DNA of 64,000 bases from NCBI GenBank assembly GCA_963801605.1, contig CAWDFP010000006.1, positions 768,879 to 832,878 on the forward strand, read 5' to 3'. The notes under the pieces are model-generated. The model saw only the letters and a list, made by a program, of their open reading frames with translations. It was not told where the DNA came from and did not search any database. Positions 7,620 to 39,100 of the stretch are shown here, in pieces. Position 1 is the first letter of the stretch. Every line of letters begins with the position of its first letter. The stretch comes from an uncultured candidate division Zixibacteria bacterium. Lineage in GTDB: Bacteria; Zixibacteria; MSB-5A5; UBA10806. The position numbers were made by a program, and so were the translations under genes.

Positions 7620-7625
7620 ACGCTA

Positions 7626-8153: not shown

Positions 8154-8708
8154 TGTGGCTGGTATTATTAGCCGTTTTGATGGCGGTAAATGAAAATTCA
8201 ATTTCGCCGAATATTATGGCGGAGAATATTATCGGCCATACGGGGACGGTATTTCGGGAAAACGCCGGTTTGAAATCGGATAGCTGTACCATCTGTCACA
8301 ATGACGGGGGATTTGATTTGAGCGCGACCACCAACCAACTCTGTTACCACTGCCATGACGATGTCGAATCCAAATCACTAAAGAGGTTCAAGCATACGGA
8401 CGTTGTTAACCCCCAATATCCCGAGCGTAAGTTGCGAGGGATGCCATAAGCTTCACAAAGCAGGCGCGAGACCGTTACTGACTCAAAACGAAATGGAGCT
8501 TTGCCAGGGCTGCCATCCGGAAACAAAGCAATACCTATCTCATCCGGTTGTAACCGGCTTACAGGGACAGACGATTACCGGGAGCGATGGGCGAGTTATT
8601 ACCTGTGCATCACATTGTCATGATGTTCACGGCACGGACAATAAATATTTCTGCAAATTGGAGCCGGGGCGAGAATTGTGTATTTCATGCCATAAGGATT
8701 TTGAGTAA
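8153..8708 (+). CDS. Small multihaem cytochrome (5 CXXCH + 1 CX3CH); frame broken at a C5 run (fragments 8153-8449 and 8403-8708)
   Basis: Fragment 1 carries CTICH and CYHCH. Fragment 2 carries CEGCH, CQGCH, CASHCH and CISCH. Removing one C from CCCCC (8410-8414) gives a continuous ...KHTDVVNPNIPSVSCEGCHKLH... The C-terminus parallels that of the 42-haem protein. Confidence 0.8.
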
Positions 8709-8715
8709 GATCGAT

Positions 8716-9603: not shown

Positions 9604-9605
9604 TA

Positions 9606-14624: not shown

Positions 14625-14638
14625 TCTCTGGAGGATAG

Positions 14639-15223
14639 ATGAAAAATAAATGCCTTATTTTGGGAATTACATTGTTATTGGCAGTCCTCGGATGCGGCGG
14701 TCCCCGGACCTTTCTCAACGGCAACACAGATTGGACATTTTATAAACAGCTTGGCGTCTTGCCATTTGTTAATCTAACAACCGATCGTTTTGCGGGCGAA
14801 AAGGTGCAGTCGGCCTTTATTACCGAACTTTTTCTTTCGGAACGCTTTCAGGTTATGGAACCAGGAGAGTTTAACTCCAGAGTAGCCCAGGAACTTAAAA
14901 CCTCGGCATCGCAGCCCGTCCAGGAACTTTCCCTTGACCAGATCAAAACGATCGGTGAAAAAACCGGAGTTCAGGGGGTAATCGAGGGTGTTGTCAGAGA
15001 ATATGGTACTACCCGAGTGGGGCAAACCGATTACCCGGTCATTAGCTTAAGTATCAGAATGATCGATGTTCCTACCGGAACAGTAATCTGGATGACATCT
15101 TTCAGCAAAAAAGGCGGCCCTAATTTGCCGATCGTATCGATTGGAGAGACGCATACGCTAAGCGAACTGACGCAGAAGATCTGCCATGACATTGTTTCTG
15201 ATTTTGTAAGCCGTGCCTTTTAA
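14639..15223 (+). CDS. Non-haem lipoprotein, paralog 1 (TolB-N/CsgG/LpoB-like 'VLPF-N' type; family uncertain)
   Basis: MKNKCLILGITLLLAVLGC lipobox. Core motifs LGVLPFVNLTTDRFAGEKVQSAFITEL, VMEPGEF, GVIEGVVREYG, ISLSIRMIDVPTGTVIWMTSFSKKG. No Cys apart from the lipobox region and one other residue, and no CXXCH. Confidence 0.6.
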   Translation: MKNKCLILGITLLLAVLGCGGPRTFLNGNTDWTFYKQLGVLPFVNLTTDRFAGEKVQSAFITELFLSERFQVMEPGEFNSRVAQELKTSASQPVQELSLDQIKTIGEKTGVQGVIEGVVREYGTTRVGQTDYPVISLSIRMIDVPTGTVIWMTSFSKKGGPNLPIVSIGETHTLSELTQKICHDIVSDFVSRAF

Positions 15224-15234
15224 GGAGAATTCGG

Positions 15235-15810
15235 ATGAAGCTTTACTCGAAAACAAACTGGATAATAATTTTATCGTTGGCGTTTTTGTCATGCGGTCCA
15301 AAGCCAAGCGTTTACCTGCAGGATAACAATGGCGCCAAAGCGTCCAAGACGCTCGCCATTTTGCCATTCGATAATTACTCCGGAAAAGAGGATGCCGGCA
15401 AGCAAGTGGCCAATGCCTTTTTGGTGGAACTTCTCAAGAATCCATCGTTTCATGTCGTAGAGCCGGGAGAAGTCGATAGGGTGATGAGGGAGGAACGGAT
15501 TCGCTCATCGAGCCAGATTGATCTGAATGCGGCTCGGCTATTTAAAGATAAGCTTTCGTCGGATTATATTTTAATTGGCGCGGTCAATGAGTTTGATTAT
15601 CTCAAAGACGGCGATCGTGATGTTCCCCTGGTGGGATTTACGGTAAGGTTGCTCGATACCTCAAATGGACAGATTGTTTGGGCGGCCAACTACAGCAGGC
15701 GGGGGGACGATCACGAGCTTGTTTTCGGCTGGGGTTTGGTAAGCTCGCTTTCGGAACTAACTCAAATCAGCGTTCGCGATGCAATTTCCCGTATAAAGAT
15801 TGCACAGTAA
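15235..15810 (+). CDS. Non-haem lipoprotein, paralog 2 (same family as 14639-15223)
   Basis: IILSLAFLSC lipobox. Aligns block by block with the upstream gene: LAILPFDNYSGKEDAGKQVANAFLVEL, VVEPGEV, ILIGAVNEFDY, VGFTVRLLDTSNGQIVWAANYSRRG, LSELTQ. Confidence 0.6.
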   Translation: MKLYSKTNWIIILSLAFLSCGPKPSVYLQDNNGAKASKTLAILPFDNYSGKEDAGKQVANAFLVELLKNPSFHVVEPGEVDRVMREERIRSSSQIDLNAARLFKDKLSSDYILIGAVNEFDYLKDGDRDVPLVGFTVRLLDTSNGQIVWAANYSRRGDDHELVFGWGLVSSLSELTQISVRDAISRIKIAQ

Positions 15811-15886
15811 ACGTAACTCATTACCTCTCTTTTGGTTAGCTTGCCGTCTTAACGGTAAGAATAACGATAATTATTTGAAATAATAC

Positions 15887-15914
15887 TTGACATAGTAATT
15901 GTTACTAATATATT
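15887..15914 (+). promoter_or_regulatory. Candidate sigma70-type internal promoter upstream of the third NHL gene
   Basis: TTGACA (15887-15892), a 16-nt spacer, then TATATT (15909-14). It sits in the only sizeable gap (186 nt) inside the cluster. Confidence 0.45.
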
Positions 15915-15996
15915 TATGACGAATATCATAAATCCCGAGAGGATTTTTGTTAAACGCTCTTGTGAAGAACTTCACTAACCTCGATGTAGAAAAAAA

Positions 15997-16945
15997 ATGA
16001 GAAGATACTTTATCCCGCTGATTTTCCTACTTGTCAACCTGGCTGTCTCGGCCGAACCGTTGGTCGAGCCCAATGTCAGTCTTGTCAGTGTGGTTAAAGG
16101 TTATTCGGATCGTAAAGCATTTGGAAATCCCACAGGAATATTCCTCGATCCCATAAAAAACGAAATCTATGTCGCCGACGCCGGTAATCATCAGATTGGG
16201 ATATTCGACAAGCGCGGCACCAGCTTGTGGACATTCAAGCACTGGGTAACGGATAGCCGGGAGGAAGGCGCCAGGATATCTGGGCGATCCTCATTCAATA
16301 GTGGTTACCAAAGACGGCGACATCATCGTCAGCGACAACAAAGCTGATTATATCGATGTTTTTGATTATCGCGGCTCACTTCAATTAAAAATATCTCCTG
16401 AAGATTATCCTGAGGCAGGCCCATTCAGAGGCGCCATTCTGGCGCTTGATAAATCAGGCAATCTTTATATCGGCACGATTCTTGAAAAATCGGAAATCCT
16501 GGTGCTCGATTCCGATTATCAGCTTATCAAGCGATTCGGGAAAAAAGGTGAGGAGCCGCAGGATTTCCAGAATATCTCGGGAATCTGGGTGAACGGTGAT
16601 GGCAACATTCTGGTCACCGATGCCCTGGGCACTCCAATTTTGAAGAAATTCAATTCCAACGGCGAATATCTCGGTGGTTTTGGAGAGCATAGTATCGAGA
16701 AAAACGATTTTTCGTTTCCAAGCGGAGTGGTGATGACCTCAAGCGGGCGGATCTGGATCGTCGATCAACTTCGACAGGTAGTCAAATGCGTGAACGATTC
16801 GGGAGCTTTCATCACTATGATCGGCGGCCTGGGATATGCTCCCGGCGATATGTGCTATCCCTCCGGAGCCGCTTCCGACGGAGATTCGACGCTGGTAGTA
16901 GTCGAGAAAAACGGTAATAGATTTCAACAATTTATCATCAGGTAA
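15997..16945 (+). CDS. Secreted NHL-repeat beta-propeller (copy 3); frame broken once (fragments 15997-16347 and 16301-16945)
   Basis: Signal peptide MRRYFIPLIFLLVNLAVSA. Blades PTGIFLDPIKNEIYVADAGNHQIGIFD, then after a +1 shift near 16250-16290 (second frame open from 16250: ...APGYLGDPHSIVVTKDGDIIVSDNKADYIDVFD), ISGIWVNGDGNILVTDALGTPILKKF, PSGVVMTSSGRIWIVDQLRQ. Confidence 0.75.
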
Positions 16946-17059
16946 TAAAATGATTAACCCTAAAGTAAATATGCCAGAAGGAGGTGGTACGGTAGTTACA
17001 ATTTTCACAACTCAGATTGTTATTACACGCACTTATTATCAAATTCGAGAGGTTTTGTA

Positions 17060-18109
17060 ATGAAGAAAATTTTCGCACTAACTCTGGCAATGGTATTCGT
17101 TTTCGCGATGACGGCATTCGCCGGTGAATACCACATGGGAAGCTCATTGAGCTGCTACCAGTGCCATTCAATGCACTATAGCCAACAGCATATGTTTGGC
17201 TATGCTCACGAGGATAGTATTCCGTTCCTCGGCCCCGATGGACCATACAACAAGCTGCTTCGTTCGGATGTCAACGATCTTTGCCTTTCCTGCCATGACG
17301 GGGGAGATGTCATAGATGTTTACGGCGTATCCGAAGTCAACGCGACAGTTAACCGCGAGGGCGGTTTCCTTAGCAGAGTCGGCGACGGCAATGAGAATCA
17401 CGGCCATACGCTCGGAGCCACCAGCACTGCTCCCGGTAGCCTTCCAGCTTGGAGCCCGGATCAGACAGAGGGTCTTACCTGCGTCAATTGCCATAGCGCA
17501 CACGGCAGCGCCGGTTCAGGGAATCCGGATCAGGTTAAGGGTCAGTGGAGAAACCTGACCAGGAATCCTGGCAACGGAACCAACAGATACGTCAACTACG
17601 AAAAATCCAGCGAGCCCGTAAACACGACCCGCGACATCAAGTGGAGATCCTCCAGCGCCCACGACGCCGGCGCTTATGAAACCGACAATGTCGATTTTTA
17701 TGAGCCCGTGTCATCTGAATCCCGTTACGGCGCCTGGTGCCAGGGATGCCATACCAATTTCCATGGTAATTCCTCAAGCGACAATATGGCTAATGCGGAC
17801 GGATGGATCCGTCACCCGACAGCCGACGTTAATCTAGGGACCTCTGGCGCAACCGATTTTGCATCCCATGCTTATCGTCCGCAAGTGATGAGCCCGACAG
17901 GCAACTGGGGCACCCAGGGCGATTCCACCTGGACTCCGCCGACCGATCTTACCCCGACTTGCGTTACTTGCCATAAAGGCCACGGCAACGGTAATGCGTT
18001 CGGTCTCGTTTATATGGATGGCCGCCATCCGCGTACAGAAAACGGCGATGCGGTATCTACCAAGATTACTGCTACCTGCAAAATCTGTCACAGCCAGGGC
18101 GGTTATTAA
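17060..18109 (+). CDS. Secreted hexahaem c-type cytochrome (paralog family A, member 2)
   Basis: Signal peptide MKKIFALTLAMVFVFAMTAFA, then GEYHMGSSLSCYQCHSMHYSQQH. Six CXXCH (CYQCH, CLSCH, CVNCH, CQGCH, CVTCH, CKICH) in 349 aa. RBS GAGAGG. Followed by a strong terminator. Confidence 0.9.
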   Translation: MKKIFALTLAMVFVFAMTAFAGEYHMGSSLSCYQCHSMHYSQQHMFGYAHEDSIPFLGPDGPYNKLLRSDVNDLCLSCHDGGDVIDVYGVSEVNATVNREGGFLSRVGDGNENHGHTLGATSTAPGSLPAWSPDQTEGLTCVNCHSAHGSAGSGNPDQVKGQWRNLTRNPGNGTNRYVNYEKSSEPVNTTRDIKWRSSSAHDAGAYETDNVDFYEPVSSESRYGAWCQGCHTNFHGNSSSDNMANADGWIRHPTADVNLGTSGATDFASHAYRPQVMSPTGNWGTQGDSTWTPPTDLTPTCVTCHKGHGNGNAFGLVYMDGRHPRTENGDAVSTKITATCKICHSQGGY

Positions 18110-18121
18110 TAGTCCGCTTGA

Positions 18122-18155
18122 AGGAGGGTGTCTCGCACACCCTCCTTTTTCTTTT
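18122..18155 (+). terminator. Rho-independent terminator after the hexahaem cytochrome
   Basis: AGGAGGGTG (18122-18130), loop TCTCGCA, CACCCTCCT (18138-18146), followed by TTTTCTTTT. Confidence 0.8.
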
Positions 18156-18179
18156 CATACTTTTACTGCGGGATAAATA

Positions 18180-19298
18180 ATGATCAAACACACAATTGTA
18201 TTTCTTTTTGCGATGATTTCTCTTTCTACCGCCGGAACTATTTTACAGAATGACGGTTTCCCGCACAAACCCGGTTCCGGTTATCAACCCGGCGCAATAC
18301 TCGATACGCCGCCCTTTACGCCAGGTTATCACAATGGCAACGACATGGTTTGCTCAGATTGCCATATTATGCATGCCTCTATGCAGCATGATTATGGTAC
18401 CCCTGATTCTTATACCTATCCTTATAACGTTGAGCCTCCCGCAAATCATCTTCTTAAGGCTGCGAACGCCTTAACGCTGTGTCTGTCCTGTCACAACGAT
18501 AAGGTTGGTATTCCCGATGTTGTCGGCGCCGACGTCAATGGAGGGAGTGATCGTGCGGCGGGACAGCTTGGCGAAGTTGGCGAAATCAACAACAACGGGC
18601 ATAATATTGCTCCTGATCCGGGGGACCTCTGCAATCGATGCCATTTTGGAGGGGAGTTTCACACCGCTTCTGTAGAGTGTATCGATTGTCATGCTCCACA
18701 TGGTACCCGGTATTATCGCAATTTACAGTGGGCGTCATGGCCGGGTCATCAGCCACCTATTGTCGCTTTTGTCAGGCCTGGTTCGCAGGGACTTGACAAA
18801 TATCAAACTGCCAATGTTCGATACGGCGCTCCCGGTTATGGACGTGGTCAGGCGACCTGGAGAGAGGTAACTAATATCTGCATTGATTGTCATCATACCC
18901 TGGTTGACGCCTCGCCCAACGGTGGACGTTATACCAATCCGGAGCTTGATGATCATTGGAATAGACACCCCGGTACAAATAGCGAAGACGGCGCATATCG
19001 GCCTATTGGCGGTTTACCGGATGATCCCGATGTTTACACCGATCCTCAGAATTGGGTAAGCGGTGAAGGTTCCGAATTTTCTGTTGGACGAGTGCCTTAT
19101 ATCGTAACCGAGGCTCACTCATTTCAACAGGCGGACGTTGTTTCCACCAGTAACGAGGTTTTCTGTCTTTCCTGTCATAGCGCTCACGGCACCGATAAGC
19201 CGTTTGGTTTACGATGGAATCCGACCAATAACTCAACTCCACTGGCTACTGCTGGATGCCGTCAATGCCATAACAATACAGCGAGCAATATTCCATAG
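18180..19298 (+). CDS. Secreted heptahaem c-type cytochrome (paralog family A, member 3)
   Basis: Signal peptide MIKHTIVFLFAMISLSTA. Seven CXXCH (CSDCH, CLSCH, CNRCH, CIDCH x2, CLSCH, CRQCH) in 372 aa. Shares ...GYHNGNDMVCSDCHIMHASMQH and NNNGHNI blocks with the other two family members. Confidence 0.9.
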   Translation: MIKHTIVFLFAMISLSTAGTILQNDGFPHKPGSGYQPGAILDTPPFTPGYHNGNDMVCSDCHIMHASMQHDYGTPDSYTYPYNVEPPANHLLKAANALTLCLSCHNDKVGIPDVVGADVNGGSDRAAGQLGEVGEINNNGHNIAPDPGDLCNRCHFGGEFHTASVECIDCHAPHGTRYYRNLQWASWPGHQPPIVAFVRPGSQGLDKYQTANVRYGAPGYGRGQATWREVTNICIDCHHTLVDASPNGGRYTNPELDDHWNRHPGTNSEDGAYRPIGGLPDDPDVYTDPQNWVSGEGSEFSVGRVPYIVTEAHSFQQADVVSTSNEVFCLSCHSAHGTDKPFGLRWNPTNNSTPLATAGCRQCHNNTASNIP

Positions 19299-22247: not shown

Positions 22248-23528
22248 TTATCGCATACAAATTCTACTGATTCGTTTTGCGAGCGCCATGATAGTTAAAA
22301 TTGGTGGATTCCCCAAAGATTCCGGAAATAGAGTTGCATCAGCTACGTAGAGGTTTTCAGGCAGACGATCGTTATGAAATGAGGCAGCATCTTTCCTCGT
22401 GAGTGGCAGCATTCCACCGGGATGCCCAGCGTTGAGTTTTCCTAAAAAGATAGCGTCTTTCTTTACTCCCAAACGGCTAAACAGTTCGGTACAAAGCTCA
22501 ACCCCTTGGTCAAGATTAGTTTTATCTTCCGCTGTGAGTTTTTTATCAACGCCTTTTTGCGAAATATGTCCGGCGGTAGCGTCTGCTAATTTAATCATCA
22601 AGCTAAATATATCGCTCATGCCCGGCTTCCATTTTCTATTGAAAAAGAAGCTGAGGTAGTCGAAATACGGGGCGATAATAAAGTGACTCCTCTGAATGGC
22701 AAAGGGCATTGATATTTCTTTGTTTTGAAAAGAGTCTTTCCATTCGGCAGCGACGCATAAGACAGGATCAACGAAGAGCCGTTTATCGCATGTGATGCCG
22801 GAGTTTTCCAGAATGATCGGTGTTCCCAATCCTCCCGCGGCCAGGACGAAAAGATCGGCGTTGTATATTTTAGATCGGCCCTTCTCTTTGACTGCGGCTC
22901 CGCTGACAGCGTTACTATCGATTAACAATTTTTCTACTCGGCAACCGGTGACCAGATTAGCGCCCTGTTCAAGCGCCCGACTGACAAATTGCCGGCTATC
23001 CCATTTGGCTCCACCGGGACATCCCAATACGCATTTACCGCAGTTTGTGCAACGCCCGGCATAACCCATTTTGGGAAGCGGGATTGGATTAAGACCCATA
23101 TCTGTGCATATTTCAAAAAGACGCTTTGTTGAAGTTCTCCAGTTCTTCTGATGCTCAGTATGAATAGGGATTTCAGCCAGAAGCTCCTCGAATTCCTCAT
23201 CGAGACAGATTCCCAGAGCCTTTAAATCCTTATCCATCCTAAGGGCATTACCTGTCGCGAGGGTAGTGGTGCCCCCGACGGCGAGGCCGTTTATGAGGCT
23301 CATCTGGTCGGACGTTTTTCTTATCTGCATCGCTGGAAAAAGAAGGCCAATCTCTCGTTCGTCAAAGAGCAATCCAAGTCTCTTTAGTTTTTCGATTTTG
23401 GAAAGCCCGACCGCAAATGGACGAAACTCCCCTCCGGCCTCCAATATGGTAACCTCATACTTACCCTGAAGTTCTTTTGCGACAGTGGCGCCGCCAGCCC
23501 CGCTCCCAATAACGATTGCTTTCTTCAT
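22248..23528 (-). CDS. FAD-dependent oxidoreductase, GMC-like
   Basis: Rossmann motif KKAIVIGSGAGGATVAKEL...ILEAGG. C-terminal YVADATLFPESLGNPPILTIMALAKR as in GMC flavoproteins. Internal Cys cluster CTNCGKCVLGCP. Confidence 0.65.
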   Translation of the reverse strand: MKKAIVIGSGAGGATVAKELQGKYEVTILEAGGEFRPFAVGLSKIEKLKRLGLLFDEREIGLLFPAMQIRKTSDQMSLINGLAVGGTTTLATGNALRMDKDLKALGICLDEEFEELLAEIPIHTEHQKNWRTSTKRLFEICTDMGLNPIPLPKMGYAGRCTNCGKCVLGCPGGAKWDSRQFVSRALEQGANLVTGCRVEKLLIDSNAVSGAAVKEKGRSKIYNADLFVLAAGGLGTPIILENSGITCDKRLFVDPVLCVAAEWKDSFQNKEISMPFAIQRSHFIIAPYFDYLSFFFNRKWKPGMSDIFSLMIKLADATAGHISQKGVDKKLTAEDKTNLDQGVELCTELFSRLGVKKDAIFLGKLNAGHPGGMLPLTRKDAASFHNDRLPENLYVADATLFPESLGNPPILTIMALAKRISRICMR

Positions 23529-24073
23529 CCTGATTTCCCGGTAACTGATAGTTGGCCCTTACAGCAGGATTTCATTTCGGTGATTCTCTGGCCGAACTCA
23601 AGCTTCCAGCCATTTGATAATCCCGCTACCAATCCGGCATCAAGCGCCGATATCAGCTTGCAAGTCTCGGAATTATAATAAGAACTGAAATAGCATTTTT
23701 TTATCTCAACCGCGCCTTGAGGATCGCAATGAAAATCTATTTTAAGTAATTTATAAACAAAAGAAATAGCCGAGAGAATATCTTCCCTGGAATCTAAGTT
23801 TAGTTTTTCTTTCAACTCAATTCCCATTTTATAAGCGTGATCATAAAGATTGCTTCGGATAGCATCGAGATCGCGGCCATCGGATATGGCAGTATCGGCG
23901 GCTCCTTTGGTGAAAAGCGCGAAACTTTTCAGATTCTGATTAAAGCAAACACTATTAAGGTTAGGGGGATTGTATCCAAATGCCCGTGCCGTTAATTCCG
24001 ACAATTCGCGCAGCTTCGCATTTTTCACGAATGTTGGGATGTATCCCTTAAGTAACCAGATACGCATATTCAT
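23525..24073 (-). CDS. Hypothetical protein with C-terminal Cys pair
   Basis: 182-aa ORF whose start and stop each overlap a neighbour by 4 nt (operon). Features ALDAGLVAGLSNGWKLEFGQRITEMKSCCKG. I can assign no family. Confidence 0.45.
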   Translation of the reverse strand: MNMRIWLLKGYIPTFVKNAKLRELSELTARAFGYNPPNLNSVCFNQNLKSFALFTKGAADTAISDGRDLDAIRSNLYDHAYKMGIELKEKLNLDSREDILSAISFVYKLLKIDFHCDPQGAVEIKKCYFSSYYNSETCKLISALDAGLVAGLSNGWKLEFGQRITEMKSCCKGQLSVTGKSG

Positions 24074-24513
24074 TTAGCTGATCTTCCTATTGCTCTGGGA
24101 TAAAAAATGGCCAGGCCCACGCCAATCAAACCATCAACAACCCCGTTAGCCAAGAAAATGAGATATGGTCCGGTTATAAAATACAATGCAAACGAAAAGG
24201 CCGCACTTGCGATTTTGGCATTAACTAAAAGCATAGGGAAAATTCGGTTTTCGGGATGTTTATACATGAGAACGGCCAGCAGCGTGACCAGATACATATA
24301 TGCCACTGCCAAAGCGAGGAAAAAGCCTCCTTGGTTTGAATCAACAGTAATCATGCCGAATTGGAGTGCGATACTATTAAAAAATGCCAAAAGATGATTG
24401 GGAATCAGGAGGAATATCAGTCCCACCAAGGCAAAGCAAACTGCCAATATCATACTTATAGTTTTATAAAGACTCATCAATTGGCCTCGCGCTTTTCCCA
24501 TAATAAAGTTCAT
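24070..24513 (-). CDS. Small 4-TM membrane protein
   Basis: 147 aa with four hydrophobic helices (ISMILAVCFALVGLIFLLI, FFLALAVAYMYLVTLLAVLM, IASAAFSFALYFITGPYLIFL, VVDGLIGVGLAIF). Confidence 0.5.
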   Translation of the reverse strand: MNFIMGKARGQLMSLYKTISMILAVCFALVGLIFLLIPNHLLAFFNSIALQFGMITVDSNQGGFFLALAVAYMYLVTLLAVLMYKHPENRIFPMLLVNAKIASAAFSFALYFITGPYLIFLANGVVDGLIGVGLAIFYPRAIGRSAK

Positions 24514-25696
24514 AGAATTTCGAATACGAATCGAATTTGACTTCTTTCATCATTTCAAGAGTCGCTTCTCTTGGAATAGGATATTCTCCGCTATTGTATT
24601 TTTGCAAAAGTGTATAATTTTTATTTATAAAGCAGCTTCCTTCGGACGGAAACCGCTTTTTCATCTCAAAAAAGATATTCTCTATCGAGGCGTTCTTAAT
24701 ATTTCCGAACGTAATGGGAGTGAAAACGCAAGGACCTACCTCACCAAAAGAATCGATATAGATCATTTTGTGACCGGCATTGCAGCCAAAATGTTCCTTA
24801 CCCTCGAAATGACTGAGGTAGTTAACGGTGATCCCATTCTTTTTATTATACCGATCTTGAAGAGCAACGAGATAAAGGCGATCTGCCTCCGTAATTACAA
24901 ACTTTTTATCCCAAAAAGCCTCAATTGATGGTTTGGTTTCACTAATCCAGGCCTCATCGACTCCCAGTCTCTCCAAAAAATGCAGAAAAGTTTCGACCTG
25001 CCCGTTTCTTATCATATCGACTGATAATACAGACGAGACGCTAACGTGAATGCCACCTGTTTCCTTAAAAAGCTCAATAGCCTTTAGGGCTGTCTTGAAA
25101 GCACCTTTGTATCCTCTACCGAGATCATGTATGTCCTCTGTCCAGTGATCCAGGCTCACCGATACCGAATAGAGTCCGGCTTTTCGAAGATCGTTCGCCA
25201 TCTGTGATGTTAGTGTGCAGCCCGTGGTAAATAGCTTGCTGGCGCAATTGTCTCCCACATGTTCCGTAATTTTTAGCAAGTCTTTGTTTAATAGAGGTTC
25301 TCCACCGGTGAAGCCGATCCAGAATACGCCCATCTTTTTCAGGTCGTCAATCAGGCTCATAATGGAAGAAGTATCTAAAAGGACCCCTTTTCTATTCTTA
25401 TTATAGCAATACTGGCAGTTTTGCGGACAAAGATTAGTGAGTCCGATCTGCGCGTGGGAGGGACCAGTGGTTCGAGCAAGAAGGTGTTCCTCAATAAAGC
25501 GGGAAAAAGCTGGGCTGTTCAGAGGAGGCAGGTGAGAGTGCAGCACGAGTTTGCCTTCTATATCCTTAACCTTAAATTTTCGTAAGTAATTACATAGAAA
25601 TAGATCCATGGCAGGGCCGGCCATAACAATTTTCGGATTTGAGAGCAGTGCGCCCACAGTCTTAATTTTTGTATTGATCCAGGACATTCTATTCAT
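24464..25696 (-). CDS. Radical SAM enzyme with C-terminal twitch/SPASM-like Cys region
   Basis: CX3CX2C cluster in GLTNLCPQNCQYCYNK, GGEPLL glycine motif, C-terminal GCNAGHKMIYIDSFGEVGPCVF. Start placed at ATG 25696 (MNRMSWINTK). The track's longer ORF to 25792 begins with TTG. Confidence 0.75.
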   Translation of the reverse strand: MNRMSWINTKIKTVGALLSNPKIVMAGPAMDLFLCNYLRKFKVKDIEGKLVLHSHLPPLNSPAFSRFIEEHLLARTTGPSHAQIGLTNLCPQNCQYCYNKNRKGVLLDTSSIMSLIDDLKKMGVFWIGFTGGEPLLNKDLLKITEHVGDNCASKLFTTGCTLTSQMANDLRKAGLYSVSVSLDHWTEDIHDLGRGYKGAFKTALKAIELFKETGGIHVSVSSVLSVDMIRNGQVETFLHFLERLGVDEAWISETKPSIEAFWDKKFVITEADRLYLVALQDRYNKKNGITVNYLSHFEGKEHFGCNAGHKMIYIDSFGEVGPCVFTPITFGNIKNASIENIFFEMKKRFPSEGSCFINKNYTLLQKYNSGEYPIPREATLEMMKEVKFDSYSKFYELYYGKSARPIDESL

Positions 25697-25840
25697 TACC
25701 CCGTTGTAGACGGCCCCGCCGACAAACGAAATTTGCGTCGAGCCTCCAATATTTATTCTAATGAAAAATAACAAAGATTCTTTAGATTTCAAAGCAATTT
25801 AGATTTAGAGGATAGATCACATTTTTATTATATGGATATT

Positions 25841-25904: not shown

Positions 25905-28900
25905 CTACTCTGTGCCGCCAACCTCGGGCTGATTATTCAAGATGGGGCTAACTGATGGCATTAATCTCGGTGAAAGGGGTGCCAAAATGGTTCCGGGTGG
26001 GCAATCCGGGCAGGGATGAACCAGGGGGCCGCCTTTGAAGTAGCTGACCATATAAGTTACATCCAATCCGTTAAAGGAACAGCTTCCGTTAACGTCGCCG
26101 GTTACATACCAGGTATGGCCGACGGTGCATTCGCAGGTATACGTCGGAGCAGCTCCGCCTTTGAAATAGCTTACCGAATAAGTCACATCGAGACCGTTCA
26201 GAGTATTGCTGCCGTTAGCGTCTCCCACAACATAATCGCAGTTAGCGCCTTCGGGGCTAAGGTTCAGATTAACCGCAATGGTATCATCCGAAATTACCTG
26301 AATACTATATTGTGTTCTGGTATTATAGGTATCCTTAGAAGCTTCAAGATTTACCTGAATAACCGGCAAGCTTGGCAAGAAATAATTCCCGCTGGCATCG
26401 GTCGTGTCGCGTCTAATCTCGGCAGCTCCGTTCAAGGCCCTGATTAGGACTCCCTCAATCGGGGTGGTACCATCGATTTCGGTTACTCTGCCCTGCATTG
26501 CTCCTGGAGGAACGCCCGCCGTGCCACTCTCTTTATTAGATGGCTTCGATTCAGCAGTCCATTCCGCGCTCGAATATTTAGCAGTGACATAGTACCAATA
26601 GATTGAGGAATCGGGTACGGTGTTATCCGTATAATTTGTCACCAGGACAGGATCGGTATTAAGCTTTACGTATTCGCTATTTTGCCAGAGGCTTCGGTAG
26701 ATGTCATAGCCAATGAAATTTTCATGACTGACGCCTATCCAGCCGAGTTCAACTCGATGCAAAAGGCCGTGTGAAGCTGTTAGATTGGTAGGGACCGGGC
26801 AGGGGTTAAGTGCGAAATTGATGCCCTGCGCGGACATGTTGGCAGTAACCTCGACTCCGCTTGTCGCGCCCGGGAAATATCCGATCTTTTCGGCGTCAAC
26901 GTCATAGCTTCCCGGAACGAGGTCTCTTACCAAATAAGCTCCGTTAGATGCAGAGACCGTATGGCTGCCATTCGATACTGTAATGTTAACTCCGCTATCA
27001 ATGTCGGTATCCAGAAGATCGGCAACGCCTTTAATTCCGCCTCGATTATTATTGGTAGTTATCTTAATCGCTCTACCATTAGCAACGGGAGCTGCCCCGG
27101 GCGAGTTGATATTGTCAAAGGTATATTGAATGCCGTCCAGCTCGTCCATACTTTCCAGGCCCACCGAACAATAATTCTCCTCAGCGTCATTATTGGTAAT
27201 TGTGCTGTATTGGAAAAGCATCTCAGCATCGCCGGTCACATTTGGATAGTAGGAAGGATCATAAATGATAATCTCAAAGGTTTCGGTTGCACTTGTGTTT
27301 CTGTGGGTAGCGCCGCTCCATTCAATTACGTAACGATGATTGGCGATGTCATTCCATGCGAAAACACCGAGATTGCCGCTTGAAGAAATTTGTAAATCAT
27401 CCCAGAATGGAGAAATCTGGGCTTTGGCATTGCCTGGATCCGGAATTGGCCAATTGAAAAAGTTGGCCCAGTAATTTCCGGCCATATCCATTCTACTGGT
27501 ATCAGGGGATATGAAACCATTTGTACAGACTATTATTCTGGTATAAGGCTTGCCGTAATAGACAAAACTGAATGGAAGCGTAACCAGAACGGATTTGTCA
27601 TCAGTATCGGTAAAATTGATTCTGGCGCCCGAACCACCCAAGCCGGGAACGATTTCAACCCAGCCATAAGTTGGATGCAAGGCGTTGGCGACATCTGTAT
27701 TGTCATAGATATAATAACCATATCTATCGGGTCCCATCGGATCGCTGGCGGCAACGACTCCTACCGTAGCGCTAAATGGAATATTTTCTTCCATTCCATT
27801 TGAGGTAATGGTATGCAAGGTTAAATTTACCTGCCTGCCGTTATAGGCATCGCTACTGCATTTAATCACCAATGGGGACGAGTTTGTATTGGTTCCTCCG
27901 ACCGCGATATCTCCGAAGCTTGCGTCTGGGGTTACGATCGTTACATAAGGATCATCTGATCTAAGAGTCGCGGTTACCCCCAGGGCCGGCAATGCGCCGA
28001 TGTTTTTAATCGAGAGAGTGACATTACAGGAATCTCCTGGATCGAGCCTGCCGTTGCCGCCCGGAAATGCCGTGGCTATGATATTTAGCTTGGGAGCTGA
28101 AACGGTAATATCAAATCCGGATTCCCACATGTCATAATACGGGTCGGATGATTCAATTCTAACTCTGGCAACTGCACCGTTGGTTGCAGTCGGTTTAATA
28201 AAGAAATTGAACGGTGTAGAATTTCCGGTTCCTCCGGCTTCTATGGTGCCATAGTAATGAGCAGCATCGGAAATACTTACCAAATTAGTATCCAATGTTT
28301 GAAGAATGGCCCTGACACCGGTAGCCTGCAGAGTACCGAAGTTTCGCAATACTACCGCCAATTGGACCGTCTCGTTGGGGCTGAGAATGTTATCGCCGCC
28401 ATCGACATAAAGCGAATCAAATCCCACTGTCACGCCAGGTTGATACATAAGGATATTACTCTGATAGGGAATCAGGTTTTTCCCGCTGACCGTAATAACG
28501 ATTGTATCCGGGGTGCTGGTCTCAAATGTGAATTCGACATAGCCATCGGCATCGCTTTTGTCAACCCGGAATACATCTTCGGAAGGGCTGTGACCCTTGA
28601 TTATGGTGACAATCGCGCCCTCAATCGGATTTCCCAGGGTATCGGCAACATGAGCTCGAATATATCCAGTGCCCATTGGTATGTTGGCTGGATGCTGGAC
28701 TACAATTCTCTTTGGAATGGCGGTGCGCAGTTCAAGTTCAGGATCGCCCAACATATTGTAGGTATTAAAATATTGCTGAACATAGCCGCTTGGATTACCC
28801 GGGAATGTGCGGAACATTTGAAGCTTTCCTGCAACGGCCGCTGCCGCAAAATGCTCGATATCTAATTCGAAAACGCCGTCGAAATAGCCGACCATAATTG

Positions 28901-30460
28901 GGTTATTCCATTTGGTATGCGTAAAGTGGTCGCTGACTCCGAAGAAAGCCGGACCTCCTTTGAGACTGTCGGGAGTGTATCCCATACGAATCCAGGTTTC
29001 TCCGAAACACTCTGTGCCAAAATCGCCCAATCCGCAAGTGAGAGGAGTCATGACTCCCAGCTTTTGACTGTTAGGCATCGAGAGAAGATTCGAAATCGTA
29101 AGCTCCGGACCCCACCAATGTGATTCGTCACCGGCGCCCCTGTACCATATCATGCCTGGGCCTGTATTCATGTAATTTAGAACCCTGGGATCAATACTTG
29201 TGCCATATACGGTATCAACACGAGCAAAACCGTCCTGAAGTACAAGTTGTCTTACCCAGAGAGTAGTCAAGCGAGAAGTATTATAGTAGGTATAGCCCAC
29301 TGAAAGGCCGCGAATCCAATGTTCGGCATCGCGCATGAGAGGAGTTTTCTCGTATTTGAATATCTTTGAGATGGCAATTCTGAAATCAAGCATAGCATCG
29401 ACCGACATTCGCGCTATAAAAATATCGGGTATATAATCCGTTCCATCGACACAAGCGTAACCGTTGTCTGAGGGGTAGCCCGAGTATGGGTAATACGGGA
29501 CGGATATGAACCATCCACGTCACCGACAATCATTACATATTCGGGAGGAACTTCCCAGGTTTGATAAGCTGTCCTGAGGTAATTAAAGATCTGAGTGTAA
29601 GTCGGAGATCCTCCCGGTGCAATTTCGGTAGTTGGCACAATTCTCGATATATAACCTTTTTGGTGTTTCCATAAGGCTACCGCCTTAAGTGAATCGACCA
29701 AAGCCGCCTTGGCAATGATTACATAACCGCCCCTGGCAGGTTCATAGGATGCCAGCATTTCGTCAGCGTTGGGTACCAACTCGCGGTAAAGCGGCAGAAA
29801 ACTTTCGGAAATGTAATTTGAACGTCGAATTTTAACGTTCCGATTGTCGGTGCCCGAATAATTCAAACGATATTGAATATCGGTATATACTTTCAACTGT
29901 TTCGTAACGGGATTATATTGAATAGGATTTACAACAGTTTGAATCATTCTCAAATCACGCATGATGATCGGCTCGCCCAATTGAACGACTTCCGATGGGA
30001 AAAATTCATTTTTCTGATACGCTTGCTCATCTTTGGTAAAGGCATACTCTTCGTCCGTACCTTCCAAAGGAGGAGGCTGAGTTGGCATGATATCGTAGTT
30101 TTCAAGGATTTCAAAAGAGGCCGAAATAATTTCAAGGGTTACACCGGCTTGATCAGGAATAGCTACAAGCTGTGTAAAAAGTGGAAGATCCGGCAGGCCA
30201 AGTTCGGCTATTTCTCCGAATTTATCTGGTTGTGACGTGATCGGCGTAACCTTTTGCGCGGTCACTCCGCCAGCCTGTATTTCTTCATTTTCGATGCCCG
30301 CTATCTTGAACTCAAGCGAGGTTTCGGTATTTGAGGAACTGAGCTTTTGAATTGGGGCTTCCTCGATATTCCCCGGCGCCAGCACAACCCTGTTTGTAGC
30401 GGCATTTAATGCCCAAACAGGAAGACACAATAAAACGATACACCAGATCCCAACTTTCAT
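25905..30460 (-). CDS. Giant secreted gingipain-like (peptidase C25 family) protein, paralog 1; frame broken once (fragments 29414-30460 and 25905-29408)
   Basis: Start at ATG 30460 (GGGAGGAGAC RBS; MKVGIWCIVLLCLPVWALNA signal peptide). His/Cys region YRGAGDESHWWGPE...LTCGLGDFGTECFGETW resembles gingipain GHGSETAWG...ACVNGDF...CFAEA. A -1 shift near 29500-29520 restores ...GDVDG..VPYYPYSGYPSDNGYACVDGTDYIPDIFIARMSVD... C-terminal double dockerin-like module. Confidence 0.75.
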
Positions 30461-30868
30461 GTCTCCTCCCAAGAAAACATCGTTTTTACATTCGAAAAAA
30501 TATTTTAGAATCACATTTTATTTGCGAACATGCTACAAAGAAGTATTATTTCGCTATTGGCTATTTCCCCGTATCCCAAAAGAGCTTGCAGAATAAATAA
30601 TTGCACCAATAATATAATGCCTCGTCTCAGGAAAACAAGCATTTTATGCTGATTTTATTAGCCGCCAAAGGCATGTGAATGTGTATAAGATATTAATTTA
30701 TAAGGCTTTATAAAACGAAAACTGGGCATGGTACAAATGTAGAAACAAAACACCTCGTCTAAAAAAAACCTGATTAGTCTTGGCTTAGTTCAGAGATTTA
30801 ATTTAGAATAGGATATACCCTGTTTCCAGCTTGCAAACGGCGCGATGACGGATCGGCATCGCTTAATA

Positions 30869-33133: not shown

Positions 33134-36100
33134 ATGAACAAGGTAATCAGAATTCTTTTTATCGGAAACAGTGAAGCCGATATCGCCATAATTCTTCGTG
33201 AACTCTCTCAAGATGGTTTCAGGCCAGTGAGTCAACGAGTAGGGAAGGCCGAGGAGATGCGCTCGGCGCTTATTAACGACCATTGGGATATCATCATTTC
33301 GGAATATTCTTTACCGGATTTTGGAGCCGTAGACCCGCTCACGATCGCTAAAGACAGCAGCCAGAATTTGCCATTTATCTTTATTTCAGAAAAAATCGGA
33401 GAAGAAACCGCAGTTGATTTATTGAAAGCGGGAGCTCATGATTTTGTTATAAAATCAAATCTGATGCGGCTCAATAACGTTATAACAAGAGAGCTGTATG
33501 AGGCCCAATTACGACGAGAAAAGCAAAAAGCAGATGAGGAACTAATTAAAAGCAAAGAACATTTTGAAAGTTTAATTAATGAATCTCCAATAGGCATATA
33601 TAAAACAACTGTAGATGGCCGGATTCTACATGCCAACCCGGCGCTAATCAAGATGCTGGGATTTAATTCCTTTGATGAGTTAGCCAGGCGCAATCTTGAA
33701 TTCGAAGGCTATGGTCAAGGCGGTCCAACTCGTAGCGAATTTAAACGGCTTATGGAACAAACCGGGGAAATCAAAGGAATGGAATATTTATGGCGAACAA
33801 AAAATGGTAATTGCATCGCCATAAACGAATACGCCAGAGCTATCCGCGATGAAAACGGAGTAATTCTTTATTACGAGGGCACAGTTGAAGATATTACCGT
33901 TCGTAATAAAGCAGAAGAAGAATTACAAAATAGCGAAACTAAATATCGTACGCTTTATCAAAGCATAAGAGATGGCTTTGCCATGGTTGATATGGAAGGG
34001 CATATTATTGAATTTAATGAAGCTTATGTAAATATGCTGGGCTACACTTCTGACGAAATTCGGCAACTTTCATACCAGGATTTGACCCCCAAAAAGTGGC
34101 ATGACATGGAATCCAGAATTATCATGGACGAAGTTCTGCCCAGGGGATATTCCGAAGTCTATGAAAAGGAATATGAACGTAAAGATGGGACAATATTCCC
34201 CGTTGAACTGCGTACTATCCTCATCAAAGATAATAAGGGCAAACCCTCCGCGATGTGGGGAATAATCAGGGATATTACAGATCGAAAAAGATCCGAGCAA
34301 GCGCTTCGGGATTCAGAATCGAATTATCGTCTACTCATTGAAAATCAAAATGATTTAGTTGTAAAGGTTGATAATGATGGGAAATTTCTTTTCGTAAGCG
34401 AATCGTTTTGCAATATGTTCGGAGAAAACCAGGCAGATTTACTTGGCAAGAATTATTTATCTCTTGTTTCTGCAGATGAGAGAGCCTCGACTGCAAACGC
34501 AATGGAATGTCTTTTCAAGCCTCCATATAATAATAATCACGAAATGCGTGCTCTGACTAAAAACGGTTGGAAATGGCTCGCCTGGTCGAATACCGCAATG
34601 CTTAATGGCCAAAACAACGTTATTGCGATCGTAGGAGTTGGTAGAGATATTACCGAACAAAAAATGGCAAAGGATACCTTAAAGGCATCTGAAGAAAAAT
34701 TGAGGGCGATAGCCTCCCGTAACGAGGCAATAATAGAGTCTGTGCCCGACATAATTATGGAAGTTGACAATAACAAATTATACACCTGGGCAAACAAAGC
34801 AGGGTATGAATTCTTCGGAGATGACGTAATTGGAAAAGCAGCCGATTATTATTTTGAAGACGAACAAAACACCCTGGAAGCTGTCGACCCGCTCTTTCAT
34901 GGTTTAGATGATATCATTCTTCTGGAGAGCTGGCAGCGTCGCCGCGACGGTAAGAGGCGACTGCTAAGCTGGAGATGCAAGGTCCTGCGAGATTCACAAG
35001 GCAAAATAATCGGTGCCCTCTCATCGGCTCGAGATATTACTGAACATAAAACTGCCGAAATTGACCTGGTCGAAAGCGAGGCAAAATATCGAAATCTCCA
35101 TGAGAGCATGATCGATGCCTTTGCCAATGCTGATTTAAATGGAAATCTTATTGATTTTAATGAAGTCTATCGAAACATGCTTGGATATTCAGCGGATGAG
35201 CTTCGCCAGCTTACTTACTCGGATTTTACTCCTGAAAAGTGGCATGAATTAGATGCAAAAATCGTCAGAGAACAAATAATTCCACGCGGTTATTCGGATG
35301 TTTATGAAAAGGAATTCCGTCGTAAAGATGGCACGGTCTTCCCGGTTGAATTGCGGGTGACATTGACGAAAAGCGATTCAGGCAATCCTACCGGCATGTG
35401 GGCGATTGTCCGTGATATTACTGAGAGAAAAAAGGCAGCACAACAGCTTGCCGAAAGCGAAAGGCAGTTCCATTCGCTATTTGAGCACATGATCAATGGT
35501 TTTGTATTATATGAAATTTTATATGATGATAATGGCGAGGCTCGAGACGCCCGTTACGTCGAAGTGAACTCCGCGTTTGAGAAGTTGATGGGATTTAAAA
35601 AGGATGATGTTATCGGCAAGACGATAACGGATCTTTTCCCCAGCATTAATATGGACTGGATTCGTGAATATGGCAAACTGGCAAAAGGCACGATATCGGC
35701 AATGGTTGAACGCGATAGGTACGATACCGGGCAATATTTTGAAACCGCCATTTATAGCCCCCGGCCGGGTTATGTTGCTGCCATATTTCAAGATATATCC
35801 GACAGAAAACGCGCTGAAAATGAATTAAAATTCAGAAATTTGCTGCTTTCAACTCAGCAGGAAGCTGCTATCGATGGGATTCTCGTAGTTGGCGAATCCG
35901 GCAATATACTTTCTTTCAATAAAAGATTCGTTGATTTATTCAACATTCCATCAGAAATGCTGGCCGCTAAAATCGACGAACCGGTATTGAAAAGCGTTAT
36001 GGAAAAAATGTCGGATCCTCAACAATTCATATATAAAGTAATATATCTCTATCAACATCATTTTGAAACCAGTCGAGACGAATTAGTTTTGAAAGACGGA

Positions 36101-39100
36101 CGGACCTTTGATCGTTATTCCGCTCCGATGATTGGAAATGATGGCAAGTATTATGGAAGGATATGGTTTTTCCGGGATATTACAGAACGAATAAAAGCTG
36201 AAGAATCTATTAGGGCTGCGGAGACTTATAACAGGGCGGTAATCGAACATTCGCCACTTGGAATATCAGTTCGAAGCCATACGGGACAACTTATAAGCTG
36301 TAATAAGGCCTGGCAAAAAATATGGAATAAGTCCGATGAAGATATCAAAAGACTTATGGCTAACACATGCCAGGAGTTGAAATTCAATCAAAGCGATGAT
36401 TATCTGAAAGTATGGCATTCAAAAATCAGAGACATTTACGAACAGGGCGGTTATCTTCATGTGCCCGAAGCGAAATTATTATTTCACCATGAAGGCGGAG
36501 ATCATTGGGTATCGCAGCATTTTTATGCTATCAAGGATGCCAATGGTCAGGTTGAAAAAATCGTAATCTTGACCGAAGATATTTCCGAGCGCAAACAAAC
36601 CGAGGAAGCTTTGGCCGAGGAAGTCCTCCGTCGTCGCATACTTATGGATCAATCCCGCGATGGAATCGTAATCCTGGACGATAATGGTAAGGTCTATGAG
36701 GCAAACCGGAGTTACGCCGAAATGCTTGGTTACTCGATGGAGGAAGTTCGTCAGCTATATGTATGGGATTGGGATCGCCAGTGGCCCAGAGAAAAACTGC
36801 TTGAAATGATTCAAGCGGTAGACGAGAAAGGCGATCATTTCGAAACCAAGCATTTTTGCAAGAATGGCAGCATCATCGATGTTGAAATCAGTACCAACGG
36901 TTCAATGTGCGGAGGGAAAAAGTTAATATTCTGCGTTTGTCGAAATATTACCGAACGCAAAAAGGCCGAGGAAGCTTTGCGCGAAAGCGAACAAAAATAC
37001 CGGATGGTTATCGAAAATATGCAGGACGTGTTTTATCGGACTGATATCGATGGGAACCTAACCATGTTGAGTTCCGCCGGGCCAAAGTTTTTGGGATATG
37101 ACTCCGTAGACCAATTGATTAACGTCAATGTCGCTCGCGATTTATATGCTAATCCCGAAGAAAGAACACTATTTCTTAAGGAGCTCCAGGCTAAGGGCTT
37201 TGTACGCGACCACCAGGTAACTCTGAAACGCGTTGATGGAAGTCAATTCTATGCTTCGGTAAATAGCCAGTACTATCGCGGTCCCAATGGCGAAATATTG
37301 GGAGTTGAGGGAATTCTTCGAGATATTAATGAACGAATTGAAAATGAAAAACATATTCGGGATCTATCGAGGTTCCCGGCTGAGAACCCCGCTCCTGTTT
37401 TGCGCATTTCAAAAAGCGGACAATTACTATATGCGAATTCAAGCAGCGCCCCGATTCTAAGCGGTTGGGATTGTAAGATTGGCGATCTTCTGCCGAACCA
37501 ATGGATAGAAATAATGTCCGAAACCCTTAAAATAGGATTGAATAGGGAAGAAACCATTAAATTTGACGACCGAGTTTATTCGCTATTATTGGCGCCTGTT
37601 TCGGAATCGGGGTATGTTAACATTTATGGCCTCGATATCACTCAACGGCTGCAGGCGGAGAATCGGTTGGCTCGCTCGGCAAAAATCAATGAGCATATCA
37701 GCCAGGTGTTAGTGACACTAAACTCGATCAGTAACATTAATGAAATGATGCCCCCGTTATTAGAGGCCGCCATAGAGATAACTGAAATGGACGGCGGCGG
37801 GATATATTTAATTAAAGATCAAATCGCGCTTCTTCATCTACATAAAGGCTTACCGGATACTTTCGTCAAAATGGTCTCGGAAATGCCTGTCTCAGAGCCG
37901 CCCGTAAGTCTGGCCCTGATTTCCGATAGGCCTTTGGATGTTTGCAAAATATCTGAGGATATTTTGAGACTTATTCAGGCTAACGGTATAAAACATGCTT
38001 ACAGCGTACCGCTTCGGGTCGGCAATGATGTTTTCGGATTCTTAAATCTTTCCTCTTACAGAGCCGTACCGCCAGACGAACTTGGTTTAAATTCAGTCTG
38101 GATGCTGGCGCTGGAAGCGGGATCATTTTTTAAGCGCGCTATCATGGAAAATGACCTTCGCGTCTCCGAAGAAAAATATCGTTTATTGTTCGAAAACGCA
38201 GGCGAGGCCATATTCGTCATACAAGAATTCAAAATTGTATTTTCCAACAATAAGCTGGCTGAAATTCTTGGCTATAGCGATGCTTATGTCATTGATCGAA
38301 ATCTGACCGATTATATTCATCCTGACGACAAAGACCTGGTCGTCAGACGATTCAAAGCCCGCGTTGAGGGCAAACAATTCGATAAACCCGAACCCTTCAG
38401 AGTCATGGCGTCTGGCGGAATTTATAAGTGGCTCCGTGTTGATGCGGTTAAGATAATGTGGGACGGGAAACCGGCCACTCTAAATTTTGCCACCGACGTT
38501 ACCGAACAGTTACGGGCTCAGAGCAACCTAAAAGAAAGCGAAACAAAGTTTCGCACAATTTTCGAAAATTCAGCTGATGCTTCATTTTTAATGACAGATC
38601 GATTTATAGATTGCAATCAAAAAGCCTGTGAATTGTTGGCGTATGAACGCAATGAGTTAATAGGCAGGTCTCCGGTAGAATTTTCGCCCGCGACTCAACC
38701 GGATGGCAGAGTATCCGATGTAGTTTCTACAGCGTATGTAAATGCCGCGCATTCGGGAAAACCTCAATATTTTAATTGGCAGCATCAGAATAAAAAGGGA
38801 AAGCTAATAGATTGTGAAGTGTCTCTCAAAGCAATCACCATAGATGGAAAGAAGATGCTTCATGCGGTGGTAAGGGATATCAGCCAGCGCAAACGGGCCG
38901 AAGAGACACTTCGAAGATTGGCCACTGCCATCGAACAATCGGCGGACGCCGTTGTAATAATGGATACTAATACAATTGTGCAATATGTTAATCCCGCCTA
39001 TGAAAAAATTACGGGCCGAAAGAAGGATGAAGTAGTCGGCCTTGAGTTCTCTTTATTAAAATCCGAAAATCAGGATTATAAGCTGATCGAAGATATTTGG

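Follow-up and report, generated by a model that had tools for sequence, protein, structure and literature searches.

A cysteine-rich, dockerin-like module at the C-terminus of exported Zixibacteria proteins

Dockerin-like modules outside cellulosome producers have long been catalogued, and their role is not clear. Here we describe one such module, carried at the C-terminus by three proteins encoded in a 64,000-nucleotide stretch of DNA (hereafter, the window) from an uncultured candidate division Zixibacteria bacterium (assembly GCA_963801605.1, contig CAWDFP010000006.1, positions 768,879 to 832,878). We report its homology and fold, its conservation, distribution and position in proteins, and its distinctness from the C-terminal domain (CTD) of the type IX secretion system (T9SS); Ca2+ binding, the disulfide map, a docking function and the identity of a partner we infer. 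The type I dockerins (PF00404; C. thermocellum Doc435, 4DH2; Xyn10B dockerin, 1OHZ/2CCL) resemble the module in having ~70-80 amino acids (aa) arranged as two tandem F-hand segments, each a 12-residue D-x-N-x-D/S...D loop followed by a helix, with near-symmetrical halves. They too stand at the C-terminus of secreted enzymes in tens of copies per genome, and the modelled fold agrees with theirs at a TM-score of ~0.7. Unlike known type I dockerins, the module has six conserved cysteines (probably three disulfides), a beta-hairpin linker with a CxC motif and a terminal CPDCPP, all of which are new. Position 5 of its loops is mostly Ser, position 6 of loop 2 is Cys and its helices are rich in aromatic residues (TYxVxYFKGG). 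It also differs in its host, a diderm phylum of the FCB (Fibrobacteres-Chlorobi-Bacteroidetes) group with a T9SS, in being detected by the Pfam model in a minority of members, and in the lack of a canonical cohesin in the open reading frames (ORFs) searched. Anaerobic fungi likewise have disulfide-stabilised docking modules, the cysteine-rich fungal dockerins, whose fold is unrelated to that of the module.

The closest precedent is the dockerin/cohesin/T9SS-CTD system inferred for 'Ca. Stygibacter' (Cloacimonadota, FCB group), where several enzymes, a C25 peptidase among them, bear C-terminal dockerins and a cohesin scaffoldin ends in a T9SS CTD (PMC8542988). The two cases share enzymes with signal peptides and C-terminal dockerins, including C25 gingipain-like and S8 peptidases, as well as a T9SS CTD that anchors the presumed receptor. 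They part at the receptor itself: 'Ca. Stygibacter' has a recognisable scaffoldin of 3,755 aa with Pfam and InterPro cohesins, whereas the Zixibacteria loci offer only a domain, X, described below. A cysteine-stapled dockerin variant is not described in that work (PMC8542988). Full-text literature searches returned nothing joining Zixibacteria with dockerin, cohesin or T9SS; Zixibacteria and cellulosome co-occur with a single mention of each term, and in the literature joining dockerin, cohesin and type IX secretion no title or abstract is on Zixibacteria.

Fold and conservation of the module

Three minus-strand ORFs of the window, ending at 25905, 40518 and 51590, have in common a colinear C-terminal module that takes up the last 111-117 residues of each. 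A preliminary description, made from the letters alone, had drawn the pattern of this module, and translation reproduced it exactly. With each tail as a tblastn query against the whole window, exactly three copies matched (pairwise E values of 2e-43, 2e-31 and 2e-25, at 58, 52 and 44 per cent identity); there was no fourth copy, the next match having E >= 0.56. Trimmed to the core, C...CPDCPP, copy 1 lies at 25995-26240 (82 aa, residues 1057-1138 of a 1167-aa ORF), copy 2 at 40620-40868 (83 aa, residues 402-484 of a 517-aa ORF) and copy 3 at 51698-51943 (82 aa, residues 1505-1586 of a 1621-aa ORF), all on the minus strand. The three cores are 44-58 per cent identical as protein, with forty-one invariant columns that include the six cysteines and both D-x-N-x-S...D loops. 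This similarity is far beyond chance. Because core DNA identity is merely 62-69 per cent, the copies must be old, their likeness kept at the protein level by selection and not the product of a recent repeat.

The module had been called dockerin-like, with two 12-residue calcium-binding loops, and sequence matches, predicted structure and conservation all bear this out. When the tails were scanned alone against Pfam at E <= 10, Dockerin_1 was the sole match with E < 0.9. It scored 22.9 bits for copy 3, equal to the gathering threshold of 22.9 bits, 17.9 bits for copy 1 and 14.7 bits for copy 2. The same model detects ten of fifty-four family members at E <= 1e-3 (best 1.8e-11). Among the sequences of solved structures, nine matched a profile built from the three cores, every one of them a dockerin (best 4dh2_B, E 8e-4). 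The AlphaFold2 model, built from a 57-sequence alignment, has a mean predicted local distance difference test score (pLDDT) of 84.5, with 94-97 in the core and 55-71 in the tail. In this model each loop leads into a helix (model residues 21-31 and 63-73), and the two halves are joined by a short beta-hairpin. When this model was searched against the PDB with Foldseek, ranks 1-27 were all dockerins, with probabilities of 0.25-1.00 (>= 0.77 for ranks 1-26) and target TM-scores of 0.6-0.79. The assignment of the module to a divergent type I dockerin fold is thus well supported, by sequence comparison and by modelling alike, and the module is best described as a Zixibacteria-specific, probably disulfide-stapled variant of that fold.

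Column conservation was computed from 380 unique family copies. In loop 1 the most constant columns are D7 (100 per cent), N9 (99 per cent), S/N/D11, N/T15 and D18 (100 per cent); in loop 2 they are D49 (99 per cent), N51 (99 per cent), S53 (88 per cent), C54 (99 per cent), N57 (80 per cent) and D60 (100 per cent). Once alternative residues are pooled, the ligand positions are 88-100 per cent conserved, and the 12-residue loop consensus reads D-x-N-x-[S/N/D]-x3-[N/T]-G-[L/I/V]-D. In copy 1 the predicted loops are DANGSNTLNGLD (26187-26222, minus strand; module residues 7-18) and DVNGSCSFNGLD (26061-26096, minus strand; module residues 49-60), with Cys54 at position 6 of the second. From this conservation of ligand residues the module would be expected to bind Ca2+. 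Behind both loops the helix consensus is V-T-Y-x-V-x-Y-F-K-G-G, with T, Y, V, Y, F and K nearly invariant, and the two tandem segments are identical at twenty-three of twenty-seven positions in the family consensus.

The six cysteines, at positions 1, 36, 38, 54, 77 and 80, are each at least 92 per cent conserved, and the hairpin that links the two segments bears two of them as its CxC motif. Their rare losses are informative. C54 and C77 are lost jointly in rare variants, C1 and C36 are lost jointly in thirteen copies, and in other variants C1, C36, C38 and C80 are all gone while C54 and C77 are retained. Since cysteines vanish in pairs, we infer the disulfides C1-C36, C38-C80 and C54-C77, and the earlier suggestion that the cysteines are disulfide partners gains from these co-loss patterns. 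We also considered that CxC...CxxC might make up a Zn(Cys)4 site and set this aside, the losses being pairwise (C54/C77, C1/C36) and not of four cysteines at once, which favours disulfides. Bonded in this way, the stretch that leads into loop 1 and the CPDCPP at the C-terminus would be fastened to the linker and loop 2. A comparable contact is known from the R. flavefaciens ScaA dockerin, where residues just ahead of loop 1 contact the end of the chain in an 'intramolecular clasp' that stabilises both the Ca-bound fold and the surface used for binding (PMC3821032). There the contact is a non-covalent stacking or salt bridge (PMC3821032), whereas the equivalent regions of the module bear Cys1 and Cys80, probably disulfide-linked by way of the CxC linker, and the bonds may therefore resemble a covalent counterpart of the clasp. 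Such a natural, covalently clamped dockerin would be of interest for engineered scaffolds that face harsh conditions.

One sub-family of the module (loci L068, L039, L065, L069, L077, L052 and L073) has extra cysteines at 34/35, 41 and 47 (...PLCADCPPCNTWNYCGD...), with C36 or C38 displaced, and would therefore have a different pattern of linker disulfides.

Distribution, cargo and relation to sorting tails

A word-indexed search found 386 relatives, and the few with names are Zixibacteria. HMMER, run exhaustively over 1.84 billion representatives (50 per cent identity clusters), extended this to 1,814 clusters at E <= 1e-3, including 1,062 at E <= 1e-10. These proteins are 100-3,594 aa long, and nearly all have the module at their very C-terminal end. 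Among species-representative genomes, a pattern scan gave 115 matches, mostly in metagenome-assembled genomes (MAGs) of Zixibacteria, with the rest in one unclassified MAG and in one that is labelled Ignavibacteria. Counting the retrieved loci alone, the closed Zixibacteria genome CP070813.1 has at least forty-seven module-bearing ORFs in twenty-five loci and CP070742.1 has at least nineteen, and these ORFs are often clustered. The cargo is varied and includes CarboxypepD_reg, beta-helix/NosD, BACON, HYDIN-type immunoglobulin-like (Ig-like), FG-GAP, InhA-MAM (M6), LamG, cupredoxin and S8 domains. Databases name these proteins hypothetical or after the cargo domain.

Two of the three cargo proteins in the window are paralogous C25 peptidases, and this is what one would expect if the likeness were a local artefact of three recent paralogous tails or of low-complexity similarity. 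That explanation can be rejected as wildly improbable. It is contradicted by the low identity of the core DNA, by a third cargo protein that has no relation to the peptidases, by a confidently predicted structure and by the 1,814 clusters that bear the module on many architectures. Far from being confined to the three tails in the window, the module is a single, sharply conserved, cysteine-stapled dockerin variant found across a candidate phylum without cultured members, where each genome encodes dozens of exported proteins that bear it. One profile is enough to define which Zixibacteria proteins are likely to be secreted or at the surface.

An abundant family of small secreted proteins (~180-195 aa; P0002, P0003, P0009, P0018, P0041, P0044, P0053) also carries the module, with several copies per genome. 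Its members consist of a signal peptide, a ~55-aa motif (YQIDWYVIGSGGGHSQSxxYQLDGTIGQPIVGxSSSxxYxLDAGFWVG) that has no Pfam match, the module and a Pro-rich tail.

The module is C-terminal in 363 of 387 copies (~94 per cent) and internal in twenty-four (~6 per cent), and some proteins hold two or three copies. What follows CPP is far less constant. The chain ends within five residues in 164 of 377 copies, so that the tail is absent in 44 per cent, while 144 of the 377 have 21-60 residues beyond CPP; the range is 0-60, and the wider family has no conserved ending. In the window, copy 1 is followed by a Pro-rich tail of 29 aa (25908-25994, minus strand) that ends in GGTE, is non-conserved and is modelled with low confidence, copy 2 by 33 aa (40521-40619, minus strand) ending in ...PFKLPIAILLK, and copy 3 by a Pro-rich tail of 35 aa (51593-51697, minus strand) ending in GGAE. 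The GG(T/A)E ending noted at the outset is thus real on the two window peptidases and is not conserved in the family, and the Pro-rich tail, which had been listed as part of the pattern, proves optional. Because the length after CPP varies and the ending is not conserved, neither belongs to the module. We also discarded both as candidate signals, given the proportion of members with no tail and the variety of endings. The end of the copy 2 tail (40521-40560, minus strand; ...IPFKLPIAILLK) is superficially like the last strand of a T9SS CTD (KMxLLK), and our local CTD model does not match it.

The C-terminal position and the dozens of copies per genome recall the T9SS type A CTD (Por_Secre_tail, PF18962/TIGR04183), which is likewise C-terminal, ~80 aa long and present on dozens of exoproteins per genome, C25 peptidases among them. 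The module could accordingly be a secretion or sorting signal in its own right, a lineage-specific alternative to the T9SS CTD that is recognised by an outer-membrane translocon and perhaps removed later. The Porphyromonas homologues of the C25 gingipain-like peptidases are T9SS cargo, and in Zixibacteria the module sits on such peptidases. Paralogues within one similarity cluster bear either the module or Por_Secre_tail, as if the two C-terminal domains had been interchanged on similar cargo, and proteins that have the module alone require some route across the outer membrane. We nonetheless think a sorting signal unlikely, on several grounds. Por_Secre_tail, TIGR04183 and other sorting models in Pfam and NCBIfam did not match the three tails at E <= 10; NCBIfam was wholly empty, Pfam yielded Dockerin_1 alone, and identity with a T9SS or other sorting domain was rejected, in line with the preliminary description. 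The fold predicted for the module is a helical EF-hand pair and not the beta-sandwich of a T9SS CTD. Nor does the module resemble the tripartite signals of exosortase or sortase type (PEP-CTERM, IPTL-CTERM, LPXTG), in which a short motif precedes a hydrophobic transmembrane helix and a basic cluster at the very end, the tails here being Pro-rich and polar, without a hydrophobic helix, and often absent.

The T9SS and the module also occur side by side. Many paralogues and neighbours of module genes in related loci end in a T9SS type A domain (...SGVYFYRL...KMxLLK), confirmed as Por_Secre_tail (e.g. L071, at 5.8e-13). A few proteins in these loci end in IPTL-CTERM, never jointly with the module. 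In three S8 peptidases (L040, L036 and P0234) the order is S8 domain, module, ~160-aa domain X and Por_Secre_tail, with the module followed, within one chain, by a true CTD. This coexistence, together with the ~6 per cent of internal copies, argues that the module itself is not the secretion signal. The variable distance from the module to the C-terminus (0-60 aa) speaks against a sorting role as well, and the conservation of Ca ligands and disulfides suits a functional domain that is stable better than a transient signal. Of the earlier proposal of a sorting or anchoring tag, the sorting half is thus weakened. The usual sorting tails exist in Zixibacteria, and to these the module adds a third, separate kind of C-terminal domain that runs beside T9SS and IPTL-CTERM sorting and not in their place.

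Domain X and a possible docking function

The S8 peptidases led us to domain X (~165 aa), which is not present in the window. It has no match to a Pfam or NCBIfam family beyond a sub-threshold one to Cohesin: in P0133, Pfam Cohesin aligns to thirty residues only, at E 4.4e-4 and 20.9 bits against a cut-off of 24.1 bits. X occurs in twenty-four of 135 representative module proteins, and it follows within 30 aa after twenty-two of the twenty-four internal module copies. It forms tandem arrays within module proteins (P0255, for example, has three X domains and a module) and stands between two modules in module-X-module proteins of ~390 aa. X also occurs alone, on proteins of ~240-290 aa anchored by a T9SS CTD or IPTL-CTERM. 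Proteins made of a signal peptide, X and a T9SS CTD (~276 aa) are encoded in both closed genomes, CP070813.1 and CP070742.1, and one gene for a signal peptide, X and IPTL-CTERM lies directly downstream of a gene coding for a signal peptide and the module only. Examples of X are found at L063:7364-8218, in P0256-P0268, P0255, P0133 and P0126, and in the ORF at 6324-7052 of L059. Taken by analogy, this arrangement mirrors the logic of cohesin and dockerin systems, with anchoring proteins, scaffoldins and adaptors, and X is the best candidate receptor for the module.

We therefore propose, at roughly even confidence, that the module serves as a docking tag, dependent on Ca2+ and clamped by disulfides, which tethers Sec-exported proteins to a common receptor in the cell envelope, for which X is the leading candidate. 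The cargo would be exported via Sec, the module would fold oxidatively in the periplasm, and it would then dock diverse exoproteins onto the shared receptor. In the window the docked proteins would be two gingipain-like peptidases and one protein without a family match; elsewhere they would include beta-helix, FG-GAP, BACON and cupredoxin proteins, M6 and S8 peptidases, and others. The anchoring half of the earlier proposal thus remains the best reading of the module, and the pairing of module and X gives a concrete, testable hypothesis for how exoenzymes could be assembled on a diderm surface.

A number of results weigh against docking of the module to X, or to any cohesin. The preliminary description had seen no cohesin-like partner in the window, and Pfam Cohesin is indeed absent from the forty-seven window ORFs that were scanned (several smaller ORFs lay outside the scan). 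A phmmer search with C. thermocellum CipA Coh7, a query checked against 1AOH, found nothing in all ORFs of seventy-eight related loci (~0.8 Mb) and of the window, although a single-sequence query has low sensitivity. Attempts to relate X itself to cohesins fared little better. Pfam Cohesin matches two of thirty-eight X copies at E <= 1, the X profile has zero matches to PDB sequences at E <= 10, and hhalign gives X a probability of 0.8 per cent against CipA-type cohesins, with a shallow cohesin profile of ten close CipA relatives. The AlphaFold2 model of X was unusable (pLDDT ~30). X-CTD genes on other contigs have no adjoining module genes, and all-against-all clustering of the ORFs in the related loci gave no recurrent neighbour family other than cargo. 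Where X stands beside an internal module, its role could be that of a structural companion and not of a receptor, as with the X-modules of type II/III dockerins. Those dyads resemble the internal pairs in that a dockerin is joined to an adjacent accessory beta-domain; they differ in that the X-module precedes the dockerin, whereas here X follows the internal copies and is also found alone on anchored proteins. Docking in addition leaves unexplained how proteins with the module only would cross the outer membrane.

The missing cohesin would be no surprise if the module were a stand-alone knob, stabilised by Ca2+ and disulfides, whose task is to stiffen or shield the C-terminus, or to bind a non-protein ligand such as polysaccharide, lipopolysaccharide or a mineral surface, with no dedicated protein receptor. 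Peer and colleagues are said to have reported in 2009 that dockerin-like modules without cohesin partners are common and widespread outside cellulosome producers. The proteins with two or three copies would suit such a role, and the large multihaem cytochrome cluster of the window suggests a sediment- or mineral-surface lifestyle. However, both helices of the module are nearly invariant on unrelated cargo across genomes, which fits one common partner better than generic stabilisation, and the pairing of internal copies with X points to a protein-protein unit. We regard the stand-alone role as improbable.

The docking proposal can be carried further, with rather less confidence than we place in docking itself, though still somewhat short of dismissing it. 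On this tentative extension, Zixibacteria may run a complete surface assembly analogous to a cellulosome from non-canonical parts, with the module as plug, X as cohesin analogue and X-CTD or X-IPTL-CTERM proteins as socket. At least forty-seven cargo proteins in each genome would bear the plug, for the most part peptidases and proteins resembling adhesins; proteins with tandem X and a module would be the scaffoldins, and module-X-module proteins the adaptors. More speculatively still, cargo with the module only might cross the outer membrane piggy-backed on X proteins exported by the T9SS.

Cargo genes and their neighbours in the window

All three cargo genes are on the minus strand and encode N-terminal signal peptides. 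Cargo gene 1, for a C25 (gingipain-like) peptidase, spans 25905-30514 and is read as two ORFs. That at 29414-30514 encodes the signal peptide MKVGIWCIVLLCLPVWALNA, the propeptide and the first part of the C25 domain, and that at 25905-29408 the distal C25 part and CarboxypepD_reg. Translated in three frames, the region has one frameshift near 29,500 (junction 29,45x-29,55x), where frame 0 reads ...PEYVMIVGDVDGS... and then stops and frame 2 carries on with ...PYYPYSGYPSDNGYACVDGTDYIPDIFIARMSVDAM.... As the upstream ORF holds the 5' part of the C25 domain and a single frameshift separates the two, we treat 25905-30514 as one interrupted gene, either a pseudogene or the result of an assembly indel. 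By Pfam, the order of the whole is signal peptide, propeptide, catalytic domain, Ig-like and CarboxypepD_reg domains, and module. Cargo gene 2 (40518-42071) encodes the 517-aa secreted protein, with signal peptide MVNRILIWGGFSIAILFQLAGA; its N-terminal 400 aa match no Pfam or NCBIfam family. Cargo gene 3 (51590-56455) is complete and encodes the 1621-aa C25 peptidase, with signal peptide MRTALLVMLIFALPVVTLGA, Peptidase_C25 (1.9e-28), Propeptide_C25 (2.6e-23), and C25 C-terminal Ig-like and NIDO-like domains in Pfam.

Two further minus-strand genes of the window are split. In pstB (43782-44616) the Walker-A part (GPSGCGKST) is at 44314-44616 and the signature-motif part (LSGGQQQR) at 43782-44279, and pstS (46584-47433) is divided into 46936-47433 and 46584-46910. 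With three interrupted genes (C25, pstB and pstS) in 64 kb, indels of sequence quality are a real possibility.

Directly downstream of cargo gene 1, at 22248-25792 on the minus strand, lie a radical S-adenosylmethionine (SAM)/SPASM enzyme (24464-25792) and a glucose-methanol-choline (GMC)-type oxidoreductase (22248-23528), with two small ORFs without a family (24070-24513 and 23525-24073, minus strand) between them. This group may be a peptide-maturation cassette. Between two of the module-bearing genes, at 33134-40438 on the plus strand, lies the gene for a hybrid histidine kinase of 2434 aa, which has at least thirteen PAS domains, GAF, HisKA/HATPase and a receiver domain. The multihaem c-type cytochrome cluster occupies 4503-19298 on the plus strand, interleaved with genes for NHL/beta-propeller proteins. 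It includes a 1038-aa protein with twenty-one paired-CXXCH stretches, and also MtrC/MtrF-like domains. The cluster looks like an extracellular electron-transfer locus.

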